In this document: positions 2,673 to 22,859 of the stretch, piece after piece | How the letters are laid out: each line of letters starts with the position of its first letter | Numbering within the stretch: position 1 is the stretch's first letter | Assembly: GCF_016127575.1 (NCBI RefSeq) | Contig: NZ_CP066018.1 | Coordinates: forward strand, 1,590,001-1,622,000 | Direction of reading: 5' to 3' | Length of the DNA: 32,000 bases | Origin: Cupriavidus necator | GTDB taxonomy: Bacteria > Pseudomonadota > Gammaproteobacteria > Burkholderiales > Burkholderiaceae | Position numbers and translations under genes: made by a program | Notes under the pieces: model-generated | The model's input: only the letters and a program-made list of their open reading frames with translations | Database searches by the model: none | Told to the model about the DNA's origin: nothing

Positions 2673-2732
2673 CTGTGGAGAAAGCTGTGGAACCGGCTGT
2701 GGAAAGCGCTGTGCATAACGCTGTGGAGATCT
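2673..2732. repeat. Five head-to-tail 12-bp units: CTGTGGAGAAAG / CTGTGGAACCGG / CTGTGGAAAGCG / CTGTGCATAACG / CTGTGGAGATCT
   Basis: The CTGTG(G/C)A cores start at 2673, 2685, 2697, 2709 and 2721, an exact 12-bp period. The array begins 13 bp upstream of the lipoprotein start. Each unit contains a 9-mer resembling the reverse DnaA box TGTGNAWAA, scoring 8/9, 7/9, 8/9, 9/9 and 7/9 by my count. Confidence 0.85.
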
Positions 2733-2995
2733 GCGGCGCGGCGGACGGGCAAGCATGGAGGCCCCATGTGGCACGGCACCCGGTCCGGCCTGTCACGGCC
2801 ACGGCTGGACGCCTGTTGGAAGACTTCGCGCGCGATCGCTCCGGCGACGGATTCAGCGATGCGGCGGATACTGCAGAAAATCAGCTTACCGCTGTGGATA
2901 ACGTCCCCCGCCTGGCGCTCGCCAGCGCCCTCGGGCACCGGGCGGCGGCATGGCGGGGTCTGACAATTCGGGCCCTGCAGTGCAGCCCGTCAGGC

Positions 2996-3274
2996 TCACT
3001 GGTTGACAGCGTCCTTGAACTTCTGGCCAGCCTTGAACTTCACGGTCTTGGCTGCTTCGACCTTGATTTCTTCGCCGGTACGCGGGTTGCGCGCCATGCG
3101 CTCGCCACGCTCGCCCTTGCTGAACGTGCCAAAGCCGATGAGGCTCAGCGTTTCGCCCTTGGCCACGGCGTCCATGATGGCCGACAGGGTCACGTTCAGT
3201 GCCTGTTCCGCCTTGGACTTGGTCAGACCGTCCACCCCGGCTGCGATAGCGTCGATCAGTTCGGTTTTCGTCAT
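2996..3274 (-). CDS. hupB: HU-family nucleoid-associated DNA-binding protein
   Basis: 92 aa: MTKTELIDAIA...FGTFSKGERGERMARNPRTGEEIKVEAAKTVKFKAGQKFKDAV. It shows the classic HU/IHF fold signature, including the RNPxTGEEI arm. Confidence 0.95.
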   Translation of the reverse strand: MTKTELIDAIAAGVDGLTKSKAEQALNVTLSAIMDAVAKGETLSLIGFGTFSKGERGERMARNPRTGEEIKVEAAKTVKFKAGQKFKDAVNQ

Positions 3275-3815
3275 GCTTCACTCCGTATCGAGTTGATAAA
3301 ACACAGGCGTCCGCATGCCGGGCGGCCTGACTGGCACCGCTCCGGCAAAGACACCGCGGGCCACATGATACCGTGTCGGACAAGGCGCACCGGGAACAGA
3401 TTGTTACCTGGCAGTTTCCGCGAGGCCGCGCCAGGCTGGGCTTCGCGGCAAATCGACGCAGCTGGGTACAGCCATCGCAAGCCGCGGAAGGTGACGAAAG
3501 CGTCCTAAGCTGACAGGCAGGGGCCCCCAGGTCGCGCAGGCGAGATAGCGGGCGGGCCGCGTACCTAGCCTCTCACCCATCCCTCGCCAGAGGCCCTCAG
3601 AGGCCCTCTGCCCACGCGCAGGCGCATTGGACAGGGCTGGAGAGCTACTGACGGCCAGAAACGCTTGCAGGCGCTCTGGCAGCCTCGGAGGCGCAGACTG
3701 CACTATGTTGCATGTTGTCGGATCATTGGGCTGGCGGCGAACCCAGCCGCTATTCGGCGCATGCATGGCACCTTGCCGGGGCGGTTTACGAACCGGCTCC
3801 AGATCCTGCGGGCGG

Positions 3816-3864
3816 CGTATACGTGAAAGTCGGTGTGGTTGGGCGTATACGCCCGAGGTATACG
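3816..3864. repeat. Left CGTATACG module: CGTATACGTG-N15-GGGCGTATACG-N5-GGTATACG
   Basis: GTATAC hexamers lie at 3817, 3845 and 3858. GGCGTATACGCC (3843-3854) is a perfect 12-bp palindrome. Confidence 0.85.
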
Positions 3865-3980
3865 CCGAATCTTCAAATCCAAAACCACAAAGCTTCGCGC
3901 TATCGCGACGTTTACAGTCCCGGCCATTTGGATGATGCCTTGGGGGCATTCTTTTGCTGACGCCGTTGGTTCGTTCTTTC

Positions 3981-4048
3981 GGTTTACCTTCTTCTTTCAT
4001 GTATACAAATAGTAGTAGTAAGTAAACACCCGCCCCCGCTGTGGAAAA
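3981..4048. promoter_or_regulatory. AT-rich tract + TAGTAGTAGTAA run (4010-4021) + 11-nt pure G/C cluster (4029-4039) + consensus DnaA box TGTGGAAAA (4040-4048)
   Basis: Read directly: cttctttcatGTATACaaaTAGTAGTAGTAAGTAAACAcccgcccccgcTGTGGAAAA. The order and orientation (AT-rich, then G/C cluster, then TGTGGAWAA) parallel the DUE / R1-box junction of E. coli oriC. The 5'-TAG-3' repeats equal the 3'-GAT-5' DnaA-trio motif. Function is inferred only. Confidence 0.4.
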
Positions 4049-4074
4049 CCACGTAAACGTCTTTCGGTTCAACG

Positions 4075-4086
4075 GTTTACGTAAAC
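4075..4086. repeat. Perfect 12-bp palindrome GTTTACGTAAAC, part of a CG(G/T)TTTACG motif family
   Basis: GTTTAC occurs at 3784, 3910, 3982 and 4075. GTAAAC occurs at 4022, 4053, 4081 and 4262. Motif orientation flips around the AT-rich core near 4000-4020. Confidence 0.8.
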
Positions 4087-4221
4087 GAGAAGTGGTCGTA
4101 TCCAATGTTGGTCGAGGTGGATGACTCAACCATCCGGAGGAGGCCAGTGCCGCAAGCCCTCCGACTTATGCCTGAGGCATCCCCATGCCAGCCCCAGGCA
4201 GCCCACATCCAATCCGCGTGC

Positions 4222-4252
4222 TTGTCCACAGTTCGAGGCGGGGTTATCCACA
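4222..4252 (+). promoter_or_regulatory. Tandem, same-orientation DnaA-box-like 9-mers TTGTCCACA (4222-4230) and TTATCCACA (4244-4252)
   Basis: The second is a perfect match to the TTATCCACA consensus and the first matches 8/9. Their starts are 22 bp apart. Confidence 0.5.
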
Positions 4253-4298
4253 CGCGGGGACGTAAACGGGCGTCGCGGCTGAGGCGGAAATGGGGTGC

Positions 4299-4370
4299 CG
4301 TATACGTGTCAATCGCAACCAGGGCGTATACGGTGAGGTCGCCGGAAAGGGGTGTTACGTATACGTGTCA
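4299..4370. repeat. Right CGTATACG module: CGTATACGTGTCA-N11-GGGCGTATACG-N25-CGTATACGTGTCA
   Basis: GTATAC lies at 4300, 4326 and 4359. The 13-nt direct repeat CGTATACGTGTCA sits at 4299-4311 and 4358-4370. The CGTATACGTG-N13-GGGCGTATACG arrangement mirrors the left module as a direct repeat about 483 bp away. Confidence 0.85.
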
Positions 4371-4458
4371 CGGTTGCACCGGTATCATCCCCGATCGCGC
4401 CGGAACGGCCGGCACAGCGGGCCACTCAGGCAAACAGGCGACGAGCACGGAAAGGCAA

Positions 4459-4974
4459 ATGGCGGACAAGGCAAAGCGCAAGGCAGCGGACGAGGGCAAG
4501 AAGAAGACGGCGAGCGACCGGATCGAGGTGCGCCAGTCAGGCGTGCACGGCAAGGGCGTCTATGCGATCGGCCAGATCGCCGAAGGCGAACGCGTGATCG
4601 AGTACAAGGGCGAGCACATTTCGTGGAAGAAGGCGCTGGAGCGCCATCCGCACGATCCCAGCGATCCCAACCACACTTTCTACTTCAGCCTGGACGACGG
4701 CAGCGTCATCGACGCCAAGTACGGCGGTAACCGCGCGCGCTGGATCAACCACGCCTGCGAACCCAACTGCGAAGCGCGCGAGAAAAAGGGCCGCGTCTTC
4801 ATCCACGCGCTGCGCGACATTGCCGAGGGCGAGGAGTTGTTCTACGACTACGGCCTGGTCATCGACGCGCGCTATACCGCCAAGCTGAAGAAGGAGTTCG
4901 AGTGCCGCTGCGGCAGCCCGCAATGCCGCGGCACCATGCTGGCACCGAAAGAAAAGAAGAAGAAGGCCAAGTAA
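4459..4974 (+). CDS. SET-domain protein (putative protein-lysine N-methyltransferase) with Lys-rich N- and C-terminal tails
   Basis: I start the gene at ATG 4459, preceded by GGAAAGG. This gives 171 aa: MADKAKRKAADEGKKK...VRQSGVHGKGVYA...RWINHACEPNC...GEELFYDYG...CRCGSPQCRG...KEKKKKAK. The SET signatures NHxCxPN and ELxYDY and a post-SET CxCxxxxC are present. The 4105-4458 part of the ORF looks non-coding. Confidence 0.85.
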   Translation: MADKAKRKAADEGKKKTASDRIEVRQSGVHGKGVYAIGQIAEGERVIEYKGEHISWKKALERHPHDPSDPNHTFYFSLDDGSVIDAKYGGNRARWINHACEPNCEAREKKGRVFIHALRDIAEGEELFYDYGLVIDARYTAKLKKEFECRCGSPQCRGTMLAPKEKKKKAK

Positions 4975-9655: not shown

Positions 9656-9764
9656 ATCTTTTCCTGCGGCGCGTTGCAGGTTTGCGTGCCGGTCTTGCGC
9701 TCCTGTGGCGTGCGTGTCACCCTCGCCGGGTGCCGCAAACGTGGCGGGAACGGAGGATGGCAGG

Positions 9765-12700
9765 ATGAAGGGAATCGTCGCCCGAGCCGATCGGGGTCTT
9801 GGCAGGATGCCAATGCAATTGCATGCGCGGCGCGCAGTCCTGGCCCTGGTGGCCACGCTTGGAATCCTGGCAGCGGGCGGCGCGCAGGCCGCGCAGGTGA
9901 CGCGCTTCTCCCCTGAAGGCACGGTCGGGCAGGTGCGGCAGGTGGCGATCCGCTTTGACGAGGCCATGGTGCCGATGGGCGACGTCCAGGCCACCGCGCC
10001 CGCGGCGGTTTCCTGCACCGGTGCCGGCACCGGCGGGCAGGCCCGCTGGATCGATGCGAAGAACTGGGTCTATGACTTTGCCAGCGACCTGCCGCCGGGA
10101 GTGCGCTGCACCGTGCGCATGCGCACCGGCCTGCGCAGCGTGGCCGGCACCGCCTATGCCGGCAAGCCGGAGTACCGTTTCGAGACCGGCGGCCCGACGG
10201 TCGTGTCCAGCCGGCCTGCGGGCGGCGAGATCGAGGAAGACCAGGTCTTTGCGCTGCGCTTCAATGGCGCCGCCACCGCGGCCTCGGTGCGCGAGCACGC
10301 CTGGTGCCAGGCGCAGGGGCTGGGCGAGCGCATCCCGGTGCGCTTGCTCGCCGGCAAGGAGCGCGATGCCGTGCTCGACGCCATCCACTGGGAACGCATC
10401 GCCAAGCAGGCGCCCGATGCCGTGCACCTGCTTGCCTGTCAGCAGCGGCTGCCGGCCGCGGCGCGGGTGCAACTGGTGCTGGGCGCGGGCATTGCCACGC
10501 CCTCCGGCGTGGCCACGCGCGACGAGCGCCGCTTTGACTACACCGTGCGCGAACCCTTCACCGCCAGCTTCAGCTGCGAGCGTGAACACGCGCAGTCGCC
10601 GTGCACGCCGCTGCGGCCGATGTCGGTCAGCTTCTCCTCGCCGGTGCCGCGCAAGCTGGCCGAGAGCGTGGTGCTGAAGACGCCGTCCGGCCCGCGCGCG
10701 CCGCAGTTCGATCCCGACCTGGCGCCGGACGCCAGCGTCAGCGCGCTGACCTTTGCCGCGCCGTTCGCGGAGAAGGCCCAGTTCACCATCGAAGTGCCGC
10801 GCAACCTGAAGGACGACAGCGGCCGCACGCTGGCCAATGCCGACCTGTTCCCGCTCAAGGTGGCCACGGCATCGATGCCGCCGCTGGCCAAGTTTGCCGC
10901 GGCGCCGTTTGGCGTGGTGGAACGCTTCGGCGAGCTGCCGCGCGGCAAGGCGCCGGCCGACTACCCGCCGCTGCTGCCGGTGACGCTGCGTAACGTCGAG
11001 GCTGACCTCGCCGTGCGCGGCGTGCAGGCCAGGGCCGGCACCGTGATGAAGCTGCGCGTGGACGACGACACTGCCGTGATGCAGTGGTTTGGCCTGGTGC
11101 GCCGCATGCATGAGGCCAGCTATACCCGGGCCGAGCTCGACGCCGTGCTGGCGGGCCGCTCCCCGTATCGAGTCAACAACCCGCGCAATGCCGTGTCGAT
11201 CGAGACGCGCTCGGTGTCCCTGCTCGAGCGCGCCCCCGGCGTGCAGAAGCTGGCCGTGCCCAAGCCTTCGGGCGATGCGCCGCGGCCGTTCGAGGTGGTG
11301 GGCATCCCGCTGCCGGAACCGGGCTTCCATGTGGTGGAGATCGCCTCGCCGATGCTGGGCGAGTCGCTGCTGGGCAAGCGTGCGCCGATGTACGTGCGCA
11401 CCGCGGCGCTGGTCACCAACCTGGGCGTGCATTTCAAGCTCGGCCGCAGCGCCGGCAATGAAGACGATGGCAGCCGCAGCGGGCTGGCCTGGGTCACCGC
11501 ACTGGACGACGGCAAGCCGGTTGCCGATGCCGCCGTGGCGGTGCGCGACTGCAGCGGCCGCCTGCTGGGCGAAGGGCGTACCGATGCCAGCGGCGTGGTG
11601 CGCTTTGCCAGGCTGGCTGCCGCGCCCGAGGGCGCCTGCGAGCAGAACGGGCTGTCGGGCTATTTCGTCTCGGCCCGCATCGGCGTCGGCCACCCGCAGG
11701 CACGCGGCAAGGCCGACATGGCCTTCGTGATGTCGGACTGGAACCGCGGCATCGAGAGCTGGCGCTTCAATGTGCCGACCGACACCGGCACCGCACCCAC
11801 GGTGCGCGCCCACACCATCTTCGACCGCACGCTGCTGCGCGCCGGCGAGACCGTGTCGATGAAGCACGTGATCCGCGCCGAGACCGCGCAGGGCTTTGCC
11901 CTGCCGCCGGCCAGCCGACCGCTCCCCACGCGCGTGGTGATCCGCCATGAAGGCAGTGGCCAGACCTACGAGCTGCCGCTGCAATGGCGCCAGACCGCGA
12001 CCGGCGGGCGCAGCGCGGAAAGCAGCTTCCAGGTGCCGGCGGCGGCCAAGCTGGGGGTCTACAGCGTCGAGCTGGAAACGCAGAAGGGCGAAGGCGCGCA
12101 GGACAATGGCGGTGCGCGCGGCTACACCAGTGGCAGTTTCCGGGTCGAGGCATTCCGCTTGCCGGTGCTGGCCGGCACGCTACAGGTGGCAGGCAAGGCG
12201 GGGCCCATGGTGGCGCCTGCCGAACTGCCGGTCGGCGTGGAGATCCACTACCTCTCCGGCGGCGGTGCGGCCGGGCTGCCCGTGCGCGTGTCCGCGCTGC
12301 TGCGCGACAAGTACGTCAGCTTCCCCGGCTATGACGAGTTCTCGTTCAACCCGCCGCGCGCGCAGCGCGAAAGCGCCAGCGGCGACGAGGAGATGGATGA
12401 GGACGAGCAGGGCGATGCCAGTGCCGACAGCCAGAAGCTGGTTGCCGACAAGCTGCCGGTGACGCTCGACAAGAACGGCAACGGCACCGTCACGCTGCGC
12501 AAGCTGCCCAAGATTGAAGCCCCGCGCGACCTGCTGCTCGAAGCCGGCTTTGCCGACCCCAACGGCGAGATCCAGACGCTGCGCCAGACCGTGCCGGTGT
12601 GGCCGGCGGCGGTGGTGGCCGGCATCCGCACCGATGGCTGGGTCTCGGTCAAGCAGAAGCTGGCCGTGCACGGCGTGGTGCTGGACGTCAACGGCAAGCC

Positions 12701-15700
12701 GGTGGCGGATGCGCCGGTCAAGATCAACGCGCGGGCACGCATCACCACCTCGGCGCGCAAGCGCGTGGTGGGCGGCTTCTACCGCTATGACAACCGCTCC
12801 GAAACGCGCGACCTCGGCACCGTGTGCGAGACCCGCACCGATGCGCAGGGCCGTGCGCGCTGCGACGTGGCGCTGGAGCAGGCCGGCCAGATCGAACTGG
12901 TGGCGAGCGCGCGCGACAAGGACGGGCGCACCGCGCAGGCGGCCTCGACGGTCTGGGTCACGCGCCAGGGCGAGCTCTGGTTCGGCGGCGAGAACCATGA
13001 CCGCATCGACCTGCTGCCGGAGAAGAAGTCCTACGCGCCGGGCGACACCGCCGTGTTCCAGGTGCGCATGCCGTTCCGCCATGCCACCGCGCTGGTGGCG
13101 GTGGAGCGCGAGGGCATCTACCAGACCCAGGTGGTGGAACTGCATGGCAGCGATCCCACCGTGCGCGTGCAGGTGAAGCCGGAGTGGGGGCCCAACGTCT
13201 ACGTGTCGGTGCTGGCCTTGCGCGGGCGCCTGCATGAGGTGCCCTGGTATTCGTTCTTCACCTGGGGCTGGCGCCAGCCGGGCGAGTGGTGGCGCGCGTT
13301 CCGCAGCGAGGGCCGCGAATACGCCGCGCCGACCGCGCTGGTGGACCTGTCCAAGCCGGCCTTCCGGCTGGGGCTCGCCGAGATCCGCGTCGGCAATGCG
13401 GGCCACCGGCTCGACGTTACCGTGACGCCGGACAAGGCCAGCTATCCGGTGCGCGGCAAGGCGCGCGTGGCGATCCAGGTGAAGCTGCCAGAAGGCAAGC
13501 CCGCCGCCAACGGCGAAGTGGCGCTGGCCGCGGTGGACCAGGCCTTGCTGGAACTGATGCCCAACACCAGCTGGGATCTGCTCGATGCGATGCTGCAGCG
13601 GCGCGGCTACGGCGTGGAAACGTCGACCGCGCAGATGGAGATCATCGGGCGCCGCCACTACGGGCGCAAGGCGGTGCCGGCGGGCGGCGGCGGCGGCAAG
13701 AGTCCCACGCGCGAGCTGTTCGACACGCTGCTGGTATGGAACCCGCGCGTGCAGCTCGACGCCGAGGGCCGCGCCAGCATCGAGGTGCCGCTCAACGATT
13801 CGTTGACCAGCTTCCGCATCGTCGCGGTGGCGGACCTCGGCCTCGGCCGCTTCGGCACGGGCAGCGCCACCATCGCCGCCACGCAGGACCTGCAGGTGAT
13901 TTCCGGCCTGCCGCTGCTGGTGCGCGAGGACGACCGCTACCGAGCCATGTTCACGCTGCGCAATACCACCAGGCGCGCAATGACGGTGCAGGCCAGCGCG
14001 CGCGGCACGCTGCTCGGCAATGAGGCCAGCCTGCCGGCGCAGACCGTGCAGATCCCTGCCGGCGAAGCGCGCGAGATCGGCTGGGACGTGACCGCGCCAG
14101 CGTTGCTGGCGTACTCACGCAGCGGCACCGTGATGTGGGAAGTGCAGGCGAGCGAGCAGGGCACGGGGGGCGCGGCCGACCGCATCAAGGTGTCGCAGCA
14201 GATCGTGCCGGCGGTGCCGGTGACAGTGCAGCAGGCCACGCTGGCGCAGGTGTCGCCGTCGCTGTCGGTGCCGCTCAAGGCACCGCCGGGCGCGCTGGCG
14301 GATCCTGCGGGCAAGGTGCGCGGCGGGCTGCAGGTGAACTTCCAGTCGTCGCTGGCGGGCGGCATGCCGGGCGTGCGCGAGTGGTTCCGCAACTACCCGT
14401 TCACCTGCCTGGAGCAGCGCGCATCGAAGGCCATCGGCCTGAACGACACCGCCGCGTGGGACGCGCTGATGACGCAGCTGCCGTCCTACCTCGATGCCAA
14501 CGGGCTGGCCTCGTACTTCCCGCTGAACGCCGACGGCGACTTCGGCAGCGAAGTGCTGACCGCCTACCTGCTGGCGGTCACCGACGAGGCCGCGCGCGCC
14601 GGGCTGGCGCTGCGCATCCCCGACGCGCAGCGCACGCAGATGGAGCGCGGGCTGACCGACTTCGTCGAAGGCCGCATCCGCCGCGACAGCTGGGCCCCGG
14701 TGGCCGGCACGCAGTACCTGGACGCGCGCAAGCTGGCCGCGCTAGAGGCGCTGTCGCGCACCGGCCATGCTCAGGCGCGCATGCTGGGCTCGATCCAGAT
14801 CCTGCCGGCGCAATGGCCGACCTCGGCGCTGCTGGACTGGACCCTGCTGCTCACGCGCATGCAGGACATCCCGCAGCGCGAGCAACGCCTGGCCGAGGCG
14901 CAGCAGCTGCTGCGCTCGCGCCTGACGGTGCAGGGCACGCGCCTGGCGTTCTCCACCGAGCGCAACGACAACTGGTGGTGGATGATGGCCGGCGGCGACA
15001 CCAATGCCGCGCGCCTGCTGGCGCTGGCGTCGGAACTGCCGGGCTGGAAGGAAGAAGCGCCGCAACTGGCCACCGGGCTGCTGGGCCGGCAGGTGCATGG
15101 TGCCTGGGGCACCACCACTGCCAACGCGTGGGGCATGCTGGCGGTGACGCGCTTCTCGCAGGCGTTCGAGAAGACACCGGTGGCGGGCACCACGCGGGCG
15201 AGCGTGAGCAATGCGGCCGACGCCTCGCGCAGTTTCGACTGGGCGCGCGCGCAGCGCACCGACGGCGTGGCCCAGGGCAGCCTCGACCTGCCGTGGCCGA
15301 CCGGCGCCGACGGCGGCACGCTGCAGGTGGAGCACGCCGGCGCCGGCCATCCGTGGGCCACGGTGCGGGCGCTGGCGGCGGTGCCGGTGACCGCGCCGCT
15401 GGCCGCGGGCTACCGCATCAGGCGCACCGTGACGCCGCAGGAGCAGGCGGTGCAGGGCAAGTGGTCGCGCGGCGATGTGTACCGCGTCAAGCTGGAGATC
15501 GATGCGCAGGCCGACATGACCTGGGTGGTGGTCAGCGATCCGGTGCCTGCCGGCGCCACCATCCTCGGCAGCGGCCTGGGCCGTGACTCCACGATCGCCA
15601 CGCGCGGCGAGCGGCGCAAGGGCGCGGCCTGGCCGGCCTACACCGAGCGCACGCCGCAGGCCTACCGCGAGTACTTCGGCTACCTGCCCAAGGGCACGGT

Positions 15701-15836
15701 ATCGGTCGAATACACGGTGCGGCTGAACAACGCCGGCGACTTCGCGCTGCCGCCCACGCGCGTGGAAGCGCTGTACGCGCCCGACGTGTTCGGTGTGGCG
15801 CCCAATGCGCGGCTGGCGGTGGGGGCGCGCCCATGA
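9765..15836 (+). CDS. yfhM: Bacterial alpha-2-macroglobulin family protein (YfhM/ECAM-like) with an intact thioester motif
   Basis: The ORF is about 2,000 aa. The thioester CLEQ is encoded at 14406-14417 (NYPFTCLEQRASK). MG-domain-like repeats are present, and the signal peptide reads ...AVLALVATLGILAAGGAQAAQ. The start ATG 9765 lies 8 nt after GGAGG (9752-9756), with alternatives at 9807 and 9813. No lipobox Cys is present. Confidence 0.92.
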   Translation: MKGIVARADRGLGRMPMQLHARRAVLALVATLGILAAGGAQAAQVTRFSPEGTVGQVRQVAIRFDEAMVPMGDVQATAPAAVSCTGAGTGGQARWIDAKNWVYDFASDLPPGVRCTVRMRTGLRSVAGTAYAGKPEYRFETGGPTVVSSRPAGGEIEEDQVFALRFNGAATAASVREHAWCQAQGLGERIPVRLLAGKERDAVLDAIHWERIAKQAPDAVHLLACQQRLPAAARVQLVLGAGIATPSGVATRDERRFDYTVREPFTASFSCEREHAQSPCTPLRPMSVSFSSPVPRKLAESVVLKTPSGPRAPQFDPDLAPDASVSALTFAAPFAEKAQFTIEVPRNLKDDSGRTLANADLFPLKVATASMPPLAKFAAAPFGVVERFGELPRGKAPADYPPLLPVTLRNVEADLAVRGVQARAGTVMKLRVDDDTAVMQWFGLVRRMHEASYTRAELDAVLAGRSPYRVNNPRNAVSIETRSVSLLERAPGVQKLAVPKPSGDAPRPFEVVGIPLPEPGFHVVEIASPMLGESLLGKRAPMYVRTAALVTNLGVHFKLGRSAGNEDDGSRSGLAWVTALDDGKPVADAAVAVRDCSGRLLGEGRTDASGVVRFARLAAAPEGACEQNGLSGYFVSARIGVGHPQARGKADMAFVMSDWNRGIESWRFNVPTDTGTAPTVRAHTIFDRTLLRAGETVSMKHVIRAETAQGFALPPASRPLPTRVVIRHEGSGQTYELPLQWRQTATGGRSAESSFQVPAAAKLGVYSVELETQKGEGAQDNGGARGYTSGSFRVEAFRLPVLAGTLQVAGKAGPMVAPAELPVGVEIHYLSGGGAAGLPVRVSALLRDKYVSFPGYDEFSFNPPRAQRESASGDEEMDEDEQGDASADSQKLVADKLPVTLDKNGNGTVTLRKLPKIEAPRDLLLEAGFADPNGEIQTLRQTVPVWPAAVVAGIRTDGWVSVKQKLAVHGVVLDVNGKPVADAPVKINARARITTSARKRVVGGFYRYDNRSETRDLGTVCETRTDAQGRARCDVALEQAGQIELVASARDKDGRTAQAASTVWVTRQGELWFGGENHDRIDLLPEKKSYAPGDTAVFQVRMPFRHATALVAVEREGIYQTQVVELHGSDPTVRVQVKPEWGPNVYVSVLALRGRLHEVPWYSFFTWGWRQPGEWWRAFRSEGREYAAPTALVDLSKPAFRLGLAEIRVGNAGHRLDVTVTPDKASYPVRGKARVAIQVKLPEGKPAANGEVALAAVDQALLELMPNTSWDLLDAMLQRRGYGVETSTAQMEIIGRRHYGRKAVPAGGGGGKSPTRELFDTLLVWNPRVQLDAEGRASIEVPLNDSLTSFRIVAVADLGLGRFGTGSATIAATQDLQVISGLPLLVREDDRYRAMFTLRNTTRRAMTVQASARGTLLGNEASLPAQTVQIPAGEAREIGWDVTAPALLAYSRSGTVMWEVQASEQGTGGAADRIKVSQQIVPAVPVTVQQATLAQVSPSLSVPLKAPPGALADPAGKVRGGLQVNFQSSLAGGMPGVREWFRNYPFTCLEQRASKAIGLNDTAAWDALMTQLPSYLDANGLASYFPLNADGDFGSEVLTAYLLAVTDEAARAGLALRIPDAQRTQMERGLTDFVEGRIRRDSWAPVAGTQYLDARKLAALEALSRTGHAQARMLGSIQILPAQWPTSALLDWTLLLTRMQDIPQREQRLAEAQQLLRSRLTVQGTRLAFSTERNDNWWWMMAGGDTNAARLLALASELPGWKEEAPQLATGLLGRQVHGAWGTTTANAWGMLAVTRFSQAFEKTPVAGTTRASVSNAADASRSFDWARAQRTDGVAQGSLDLPWPTGADGGTLQVEHAGAGHPWATVRALAAVPVTAPLAAGYRIRRTVTPQEQAVQGKWSRGDVYRVKLEIDAQADMTWVVVSDPVPAGATILGSGLGRDSTIATRGERRKGAAWPAYTERTPQAYREYFGYLPKGTVSVEYTVRLNNAGDFALPPTRVEALYAPDVFGVAPNARLAVGARP

Positions 15837-22589: not shown

Positions 22590-22859
22590 CCGCACCGAGA
22601 TGGGGCAGGCGCGCGGCCACTGTTGCGTGCCCGCCCTATAAAACCGCTCTTGCCTCAGGGTTTTTTCCTGCGCGCGGCATAAACCGTTGTGCGGATGCCT
22701 CGGTGAACGGCCCTGAGAGCCGCTCCCATGCTGGTTTCTTAGTGGTTAACCCTCCCTTTAGGGGGCGTCCTCTACGAATCAGTGTCATCGGTGAAACAGT
22801 CGTGCTCCGGCTGGCCGGATAATGCACACGGCAGTAACCGAAAGAGGAGTAAGAGGATT

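Follow-up and report, generated by a model that had tools for sequence, protein, structure and literature searches.

What is the role of the 1,184 nt that separate hupB, the gene for the DNA-binding protein HU, from a gene for a SET-domain protein in Cupriavidus necator? This island (3275-4458) lies in a window of 32,000 nt (contig NZ_CP066018.1, positions 1,590,001 to 1,622,000; coordinates below are positions in the window) and is the widest gap between genes of the window that are supported by their G+C content at third codon positions (GC3). An initial annotation, made from the sequence alone, had described it as a gene-free, repeat-dense region and had offered several explanations, namely a replication or segregation site, a large regulatory hub for its two neighbors, a structured non-coding RNA, or a decayed mobile or plasmid remnant. 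We conclude, with a probability of roughly 90%, that the island is the DnaA-dependent replication origin (oriC) of the primary chromosome in the C. necator group of Cupriavidus. The origin function itself comes from published work on an ortholog and not from the present analysis, and since the same locus has been published as the origin of a sister strain, its identity was already known. What our analysis contributes is the anatomy of the locus, its enrichment in the methylation motif GTWWAC, and the conservation of the density of these sites.

Identity of the island with the origin of chromosome 1

The window and the corresponding part of record CP196472.1 (4,049,929 bp) are identical, and the island lies there at approximately 3.969-3.970 Mb, which leaves about 80 kb to the record's end. 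For C. necator N-1, a 2026 Nature Communications paper placed the ori of chromosome 1 at 3,792,937-3,794,114 (1177 nt; PMC13342612, Supplementary Data 2b), described it as "confirmed by MFA" (marker frequency analysis) and noted a distance of about 80 kb to the position predicted by DoriC. The 399 nt of this ori that are printed align to positions 4063-4458 of our window, on the minus strand and with 92% identity, from the base before the ATG of the SET gene. Because the alignment begins just before the SET start, the published N-1 "ori" corresponds to the hupB-SET intergenic region. In C. metallidurans CH34, Janssen et al. (2010; PMC2864759) located a GC-skew transition some 90 kb away from dnaA, immediately after 213 nt with three perfect DnaA boxes, and this three-box stretch is the same span as 4040-4252 here. 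The exact origin of Burkholderia cenocepacia chromosome 1 was still unclear to Du et al. (2016); in strain J2315 it has since been confirmed by MFA (ori1), about 48 kb from the DoriC position (PMC13342612).

As the ortholog of an MFA-confirmed origin, and with a module conserved among relatives (see below), the island bears out the earlier suggestion of a replication site. The other half of that suggestion, segregation, found no backing, as no chromosomal parS consensus was present in the whole window at up to three mismatches and there is consequently no evidence for such a role.

The predicted unwinding core

The G+C content of the island is 61%, compared with 69% for the window. A hand count had given about 32% for positions 3981-4030; the value is exactly 32%, and the 50-mer with the lowest G+C content in all 32 kb (28%) begins at 3977. 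An AT-rich unwinding region extends over 3975-4009 (plus strand), with an invariant GTTTAC (3982) and ATGTATAC (3999-4006), the columns of which are invariant in our alignment of relatives (A1). The region is also conserved in Ralstonia, Paraburkholderia and B. cenocepacia ori1, and it adjoins a DnaA box at 4040, the pairing that an oriC is expected to contain.

Between the AT-rich stretch and this box, a DnaA-trio array can be read from the sequence on the plus strand (4004-4021), consisting of six NAN trios (TAC AAA TAG TAG TAG TAA) with a (TAG)3 core at 4010-4018. The trios are followed by GTAAAC (4022) and then by a GC spacer (4028-4039; CCCGCCCCCGC). The box itself, TGTGGAAAA (4040-4048, minus strand), takes the form TGTGGATAA in 7 of the 14 Cupriavidus loci that we compared as well as in Ralstonia and Burkholderia, and from its position it should nucleate DnaA onto the trios. 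In the basal unwinding system (BUS), the pattern is a DnaA box, a spacer and (.A.) repeated at least three times, and the published search for it allowed a spacer of at most 16 nt, with a peak at 10-13 (PMC8287927). The trio-box spacer of the island amounts to 18 nt when only uninterrupted trios are counted and to 12 nt if AAC at 4025-4027 is counted too.

On the other side of the 4040 box, the core holds another GTAAAC (4053), an IHF-like site TTCAACGGTTTA (4068-4079) to which IHF is predicted to bind, and a 12-bp palindrome, GTTTACGTAAAC (4075-4086), made of two overlapping GTWWAC sites. For the chromosome 1 origin of B. cenocepacia, an IHF site was reported by Du et al. (2016). The core module could be aligned across Cupriavidus, Ralstonia, Paraburkholderia and B. 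cenocepacia J2315 ori1 (alignment A2), and TAGTA, CTGTGGA.AA and the TCA-N5-TT of the IHF-like site are invariant across the four genera. Relative to the SET gene, the module is reversed in Paraburkholderia and B. cenocepacia.

DnaA boxes on both sides of hupB

Counting matches to the consensus TTATCCACA with at most one mismatch, six of the eight DnaA boxes of the window cluster at 2674-4252, the kind of grouping looked for in an oriC. They include both perfect boxes (2893 and 4244) and four of the six with one mismatch (2674, 2710, 4040 and 4222). The DnaA boxes previously noticed within the island are thus genuine matches, one perfect (4244) and two with a single mismatch (4040, 4222). The right half of the core (4116-4252, plus strand) comprises a weak box, GGTGGATGA (4116, two mismatches), followed by TTGTCCACA (4222) and the perfect TTATCCACA (4244). 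From 4040 to 4252 the boxes span 213 nt.

To compare relatives, we used the loci from a genome-collection scan with the SET protein as query, which yielded 80 loci, including 14 from Cupriavidus. The spacings of the island boxes are fixed in all 14 (181-182 and 22 nt). Beyond hupB, a second cluster is found on the minus strand (2674-2901), with TGTGGAGAA at 2674, TGTGCATAA at 2710 and the perfect TGTGGATAA at 2893. It recurs in the same orientation, with spacings of 24-36 and approximately 183 nt, in each of the 13 Cupriavidus loci that had enough left flank, one of which (L014) has a fourth box; in the Ralstonia locus L016 it was absent at up to one mismatch. All 14 Cupriavidus loci share the same six boxes, the left three being assessed in those 13. 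Two boxes of the left cluster fall inside the called 5' end of a DUF2272 gene. With conserved boxes on its far side, hupB sits between two DnaA-box clusters. The left cluster may contribute to initiation, and the arrangement may represent a bipartite origin in which the HU gene is embedded, which would be a second novelty independent of the methylation sites described below.

Two further observations concern the left cluster. Its spacing of 183 nt has a counterpart of 182 nt in the island. CTGTGCA, a 7-mer that reportedly forms clusters in every B. cenocepacia origin, has its sole copy in the window at 2709-2715, overlapping the DnaA-like box at 2710.

A single motif, GTWWAC, at high density

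At least four kinds of short motif had been noted as concentrated in the island. The concentration is real, but two of the kinds do not stand as separate entities. CGTATACG (3816, 3844, 4299, 4325 and 4358) contains GTATAC, which together with GTTTAC and GTAAAC (eight copies of the latter two in the window, every one within the island) makes up instances of the single motif GTWWAC. This motif is the target of an orphan N6-methyladenine methylase conserved across the Burkholderiaceae (PMC5390034), known in B. cenocepacia as M.BceJIV/BCAM0992. Genome-wide in C. necator H16, 95.3% of GTWWAC is methylated, an activity assigned to an orphan enzyme (E6A55_RS13360) without a restriction role.

Fifteen of the 18 GTWWAC sites of the window lie in 3784-4364 (about 580-590 nt). 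Under a first-order Markov model with the region's own composition, 0.86 sites would be expected there and the maximum in 2000 simulations was five, which makes the observed sites approximately 17-fold denser. For the whole window, dinucleotide-preserving shuffles gave 3.6 expected sites against 18 observed, so that the three sites outside the island (16310, 21879 and 22745) are at about chance level. Three sites are within the unwinding and trio element, two are 4-9 nt from DnaA boxes, nine are in the arms that flank the core, and the overlapping pair at 4075/4081 brings the total to 15.

The left arm (3780-3960) has five sites (3784, 3817, 3845, 3858 and 3910), mostly in the extended form CGTATACG, and the right arm (4256-4375) has four (4262, 4300, 4326 and 4359), of which three read CGTATACGT(GTC). 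The core between them (3961-4255) is 66-92% identical among Cupriavidus and contains 4-7 GTWWAC sites. The left arm, whose identity is 11-47% to all but the closest strain, cannot be aligned across the genus but keeps 1-5 sites; the right arm, with 23-69% identity, also retains 1-5 sites in every Cupriavidus. Only against the closest strain do the arms reach 69-73% identity. Genomes with few left-arm sites have more sites in the spacer next to that arm, and all 14 Cupriavidus origins carry 12-18 GTWWAC within 800-1000 bp upstream of SET. An origin crowded with sites of an orphan methylase, as a methylation-controlled origin would be, is found in all 14 (15 sites in 580 bp in the window). Because the arms cannot be aligned while the total stays at 12-18, it looks as if selection acts on the density of the sites rather than on their position.

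The sites prefer CG flanks, the base at -1 being C in 57% of them and A in 1%, and 56% of the sites are GTATAC. Helical periodicity of their spacing was weak (R about 0.18 at 10-10.5 bp), in a set of genomes that are not independent. Among loci L022-L080 (Rubrivivax, Rhizobacter, Roseateles, Polaromonas and others), most of the 20-kb stretches had no GTWWAC at all, for a rough composition estimate of a few per 20 kb. Outside the Burkholderiaceae the motif looks avoided.

Two other repeats of the island did not gain from the comparison. As annotated, CTTTCGGTT occurs at 3976 and 4061, with a further reverse-strand copy at 22836. The tandem of two CAGAGGCCCT is also present, 2 nt away from its annotated place (3588-3607 instead of 3590-3609). 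As functional repeats, the second CTTTCGGTT copy and the CAGAGGCCCT tandem were set aside, being unconserved among relatives and probably incidental. The spacer of the relatives has a loosely similar CTCAGARGGCC element, without the CAGAGGCCCT tandem.

The locus in related genomes

The order hupB-island-SET is kept in all 14 Cupriavidus and in Ralstonia, and the synteny and motif conservation on which the initial annotation had made its reading depend are both present, with 12-18 GTWWAC per Cupriavidus locus. Ralstonia loci have three to five perfect DnaA boxes (four in tandem in L016) and only 2-3 GTWWAC. In Paraburkholderia and Trinickia, 5-16 GTWWAC are found with DnaA boxes approximately 5.5-7 kb upstream of SET; in one Paraburkholderia (L033) this cluster is located between an mnmC-like gene and a Na/H exchanger gene, with a MarR gene nearby. 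The 655-aa gene beside the Paraburkholderia cluster was considered as a possible gidA and rejected, since it is mnmC-like (DAO and Methyltransf_30 domains). A second cluster, of 3-5 GTWWAC and two DnaA boxes, was seen upstream of the MarR gene about 3 kb from the main one (L033, 6681-6898; L040, 6661-6886). In Rubrivivax, Rhizobacter, Comamonadaceae and others, SET is present and a GTWWAC cluster is not, which means that the cluster is not a property of the SET gene.

GTWWAC was also observed at other replicons. The origin of N-1 chromosome 2 carries CACGTATACGT, the same extended form as window positions 4356-4366, and the J2315 chromosome 3 origin opens with GTTTAC, GTAAAC and GTTTAC in about 35 nt.

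Gene-proximal segments and a regulatory explanation

Both flanking genes are transcribed away from the origin core. To the left, hupB (2996-3274, minus strand; HU, 92 aa; Pfam Bac_DNA_binding, E = 2.8e-29; gene call in L081) is transcribed leftwards, and to the right, the SET gene (4459-4974, plus strand; 171 aa; Pfam SET, E = 9.5e-23) is transcribed rightwards. Its ATG is at 4459, the start chosen by gene callers, and not at 4460. Next to hupB, a conserved region that is probably its promoter and 5' leader (3275-3480, minus strand) is 58-95% identical to 10 of 11 other Cupriavidus and 34% identical to C. basilensis OR16. GTWWAC is absent from this segment here and in nine other Cupriavidus, and occurs once in each of two. 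A variable GC-rich spacer follows (3481-3779; 19-76% identity, with varying length), which has no GTWWAC here and up to six elsewhere (C. pauculus and the metagenome-assembled genome RH59) and which holds small conserved boxes, CTGCACTAT..TGCATG at about 3693-3712 and TATTCGGCGCATGCATGG at about 3752-3770. Next to SET, the corresponding probable promoter and leader region (4376-4458, plus strand; 34-96% identity) contains no GTWWAC in the window and includes GGTATCAT, invariant in A1.

The GGTATCAT element occurs twice, at 3365-3370 on the minus strand, 91 nt before the hupB start, and at 4383-4388 on the plus strand, 71 nt before the SET start; at both places the hexamer is TATCAT. It may be a -10-like element common to the divergent hupB and SET promoters. 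A scan of the island for sigma-70 and terminator consensus sequences found no promoter-like site and one terminator-like hairpin (3934-3950), within chance expectation. Because the sigma-70 scan found nothing, the hupB-side promoter is assigned indirectly, and we regard the conserved gene-proximal segments as probable carriers of both promoters. As a regulatory hub for hupB and SET, the island thus qualifies only in the trivial sense that the approximately 200 nt by hupB and 80 nt by SET are conserved and must carry promoters.

A stronger version of this idea would make the island mainly a shared regulatory region, in which GTWWAC sites overlie hupB and SET promoter elements and methylation tunes transcription. 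In R. solanacearum, where the HU-SET region measures 640 bp, Erill et al. (2017) found that three conserved methylated GTWWAC overlap -35 boxes predicted for the two genes. GTWWAC methylation alters promoter activity elsewhere in B. cenocepacia, and the segments adjoining both genes are conserved. We consider this explanation unlikely as a replacement for an origin. The conserved GTWWAC sites are in the core with the AT-rich stretch, trios and boxes, at distances of 370-480 nt to the start codon of SET and over 700 nt to that of hupB, whereas the conserved gene-proximal segments have none in this window and no promoter was predicted by the sigma-70 scan. Moreover, the region is an MFA-supported origin, and SET genes outside the Burkholderiaceae have no upstream cluster. 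Transcriptional control can nevertheless hold alongside an origin function.

Strand polarity around the island

Several observations speak mildly against placing the origin here. We examined GC skew at the 1-kb and flank scales, GC3 skew per gene and the orientation of GGGNAGGG, a site resembling the FtsK orienting polar sequences (KOPS), over 12 kb leftwards. GC skew does not change sign at the island, being +0.012 to +0.019 over the left 12.4 kb and +0.039 on the right. The few KOPS-like sites on the left point forwards, as those on the right do. Of the 12 genes in the left flank, nine are oriented towards the island, and minus-strand genes there (LamB, DUF2272) have a coding strand rich in C, as do those on the right. 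In addition, the MFA has a resolution of 1-10 kb and the whole intergenic region was taken as 'ori' (PMC13342612), and in the literature searched we found no autonomous-replication or essentiality experiment on the locus.

The left flank may have been rearranged recently, since beyond EamA it is not syntenic between Cupriavidus species and some strains have a group II intron there. These insertions mark a flexible stretch close to the origin; they are about 5-7 kb left of the island, in strains otherwise identical at the locus, and consist of a group II intron-type gene (RVT_N, RVT_1, GIIM and HNH domains) between LamB-like and DctP genes (L082, 5269-7471; L083, 5759-7471). Elsewhere, C. pauculus, C. 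campinensis and Paraburkholderia have a slightly negative skew in the left flank, and the Ralstonia values are near zero on the left (-0.007 to +0.018) and +0.03 to +0.05 on the right. For Ralstonia and Paraburkholderia, this is compatible with a switch.

The same lack of a sign change in GC skew or in KOPS-like orientation within 12 kb leftwards would fit a site that titrates or reactivates DnaA, similar to datA or DARS, or the relic of a former origin, with the active origin elsewhere, for example by dnaA about 80 kb away. DoriC does place the origin about 80 kb from the island, and in CH34 a perfect DnaA box and three degenerate ones precede dnaA (PMC2864759). However, the N-1 MFA and the chromosome-wide skew transition of CH34 both fall at this locus and not at dnaA, and a full unwinding module, which datA and DARS do not need, is conserved across four genera, including the MFA-confirmed B. 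cenocepacia ori1. On balance, a titration site or relic is very improbable.

Coding content of the island

The claim that approximately 1.18 kb lacks a credible coding sequence is upheld for the full 1,184 nt. None of the open reading frames (ORFs) in the island has coding-type GC3, and all eight of them, including a 241-aa ORF on the minus strand and the in-frame extension of SET, gave no Pfam match at E ≤ 0.01 (best E = 0.088). The extension of the SET frame back to 4105 is non-coding, as it runs through the upstream arm, which has indels and is unconserved; indels between relatives are numerous across the whole island (A1). Gene callers left the gap empty in three of four assemblies and called an 83-aa ORF in the other. 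Rfam searches returned no match at gathering thresholds for the whole window and none at E ≤ 1 for 3200-4520, and blastn in distant mode with the island as query found no match among the 72,556 plasmids of PLSDB. A rep gene with an array of 17-22-bp direct repeats, typical of plasmid iteron origins, was not found at the island, where the repeats are irregularly spaced palindromes of 6-8 bp and the neighboring genes encode HU, DUF2272, DinB, SET and two-component system proteins.

The least credible explanation of all is that the island is what is left of a gene or of a mobile element or plasmid, or that it encodes a structured RNA. The unusual length of the 1.2-kb gap, two ORFs (241 aa at 3404-4129 on the minus strand; 289 aa at 4105-4974, the SET extension), the 83-aa call and the tandem 10-mer in the spacer might suggest it. 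Against it stand the lack of coding GC3, of Pfam, plasmid and Rfam matches at these thresholds, and of a Rep gene or iteron array, the many indels between relatives, and the location of the island, which hupB and SET flank in each of the 14 Cupriavidus loci and in Ralstonia. The non-coding RNA and the decayed mobile element proposed initially are accordingly abandoned.

Unrelated to the origin, the window also contains a 2043-aa ORF of the bacterial alpha-2-macroglobulin type (9705-15836; bMG3, MG2, A2M and bMG10 domains; gene calls of L081).

A model for initiation and the possible role of methylation

From the layout of the sequence and established oriC biology, we infer how initiation might proceed, the supercoiling and methylation steps being the conjectural ones. 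DnaA would bind the fixed boxes at 4040, 4222 and 4244, to which the weaker box at 4116 and the 2674-2901 cluster may contribute. From the 4040 box, DnaA would oligomerize over the GC spacer onto the TAG-type trios (4004-4021), and on the trios it would open the adjoining AT-rich DNA (3975-4009). Opening is probably aided by bending at 4068-4079 by IHF or by HU, which is encoded next door, and the outward transcription of hupB and SET should favor it by adding negative supercoiling between them. Passage of the fork would leave the GTWWAC sites hemimethylated, and hemimethylation might then delay or modulate re-initiation through DnaA access, duplex stability or a reader protein.

The density of the sites suggests an origin control of the Dam/SeqA kind, and Vandenbussche et al. 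(2020), who noted that the DnaA boxes of B. cenocepacia origins have two or more methylated GTWWAC between them, had already raised replication control. That GTWWAC methylation affects initiation is a tentative proposition, one that we hold at appreciably less than even odds. Its stricter form is somewhat more doubtful still, namely that methylation serves as a Dam-like origin clock, in which the selected 12-18 sites become hemimethylated at initiation and a reader keeps the origin refractory. One candidate reader is the methylase itself, whose dimer binds two sites simultaneously. The mark might also help to order the initiation of chromosome and chromid, as the chromid origin shares CACGTATACGT.

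There are several arguments against a role of methylation. SeqA is not known to occur outside the Gammaproteobacteria, and no reader of hemimethylated DNA is known in the Betaproteobacteria. The homologous origin of Ralstonia has only 2-3 GTWWAC, and loss of the methylase in B. cenocepacia leaves exponential growth normal, with an enlarged nucleoid as the only effect. The preference for CG flanks could mean that what matters is the reading of CGTATACG by a sequence-specific protein and not the methyl mark.

Novelty and significance

Among the open-access texts that mention "GTWWAC", none was found that describes such a density at a Cupriavidus origin, which looks unreported. The main text of PMC13342612 mentions methylation only for another organism, and a word search of the text of the M.BceJIV structure paper found origins unmentioned. 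In R. solanacearum, Erill et al. (2017) listed five loci with several conserved methylated GTWWAC, two of which are the HU-SET region and the megaplasmid repA; the former was read as promoter control, and the origin position was taken from the original genome paper. These two of the five loci are replication origins, and the Cupriavidus oriC, with 12-18 sites, is the extreme case. For the reading of methylomes, this means that the Ralstonia HU-SET locus with multiple GTWWAC, so far taken as promoter control, is the chromosomal origin.

With the identity of the locus known, the interest that remains lies in the unification of the motifs, the selected density of the sites, the link to the Ralstonia methylome and the conserved box cluster beyond hupB. 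Three literatures are brought together here, on MFA mapping of origins, on Burkholderiaceae methylomes and on the BUS. DoriC and assemblies started at dnaA misplace the Cupriavidus origin by about 80 kb, and the window now provides it at base resolution, which is relevant to gene dosage, chromosome rotation and minichromosome design in C. necator, an industrial host. A testable hypothesis also emerges, that the conserved orphan methylase of these Betaproteobacteria has a Dam- or CcrM-like role in origin control, and Cupriavidus would be the most favorable test case because its site density is the highest.

Comparison with known systems

The closest known systems are the chromosome 1 ori of N-1 and the DnaA-box cluster of CH34, which share the hupB-SET locus and its distance of about 80 kb (N-1, from the DoriC site) or 90 kb (CH34, from dnaA). 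The papers describing them give coordinates only, with no unwinding module, no box cluster beyond hupB and no GTWWAC density. B. cenocepacia J2315 ori1 has a homologous core, with GTATA(T)AC, TAG-trios, a spacer, CTGTGGATAAC and an IHF-like site, and likewise has GTWWAC between DnaA boxes and an origin apart from dnaA. It differs from the island in being rich in CACAG/CTGTGCA 7-mers, of which there is one here, and in having four GTWWAC in its printed 399 nt against 15 in 580 nt. In addition, the module of Paraburkholderia, and by homology that of Burkholderia, is inverted relative to SET and lies about 6.5 kb off, beside mnmC.

The island resembles the BUS (Richardson, 2016; Pelliciari, 2021; PMC8287927) in its order of a DnaA box, a spacer, at least three NAN trios with the consensus 5'-TAG-3' and AT-rich DNA, and the polarity of its trios is the same as in the tested origin of D. 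radiodurans. Its spacer of 12-18 nt is, however, at or just over the published limit of 16, depending on how the trios are counted. Two conserved box clusters about 1.1 kb apart with a gene between them recall the bipartite origins incAB-dnaA-incC of B. subtilis and oriC1-dnaA-oriC2 of H. pylori. Here, in contrast, the embedded gene is hupB, and the left cluster has no AT-rich or trio element and is absent in Ralstonia.

Finally, the E. coli oriC has 11 GATC in approximately 245 bp, and each of its 13-mers starts with GATC. Compared with this Dam/SeqA system and with CcrM (GANTC) at the Caulobacter origin Cori, the motif and the methylase family of the island are different, and the number of sites varies from 2 to 18 between genera. 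All three origins are densely packed with the targets of an orphan adenine methylase, and the likeness extends to sites inside the unwinding element and beside the DnaA boxes.

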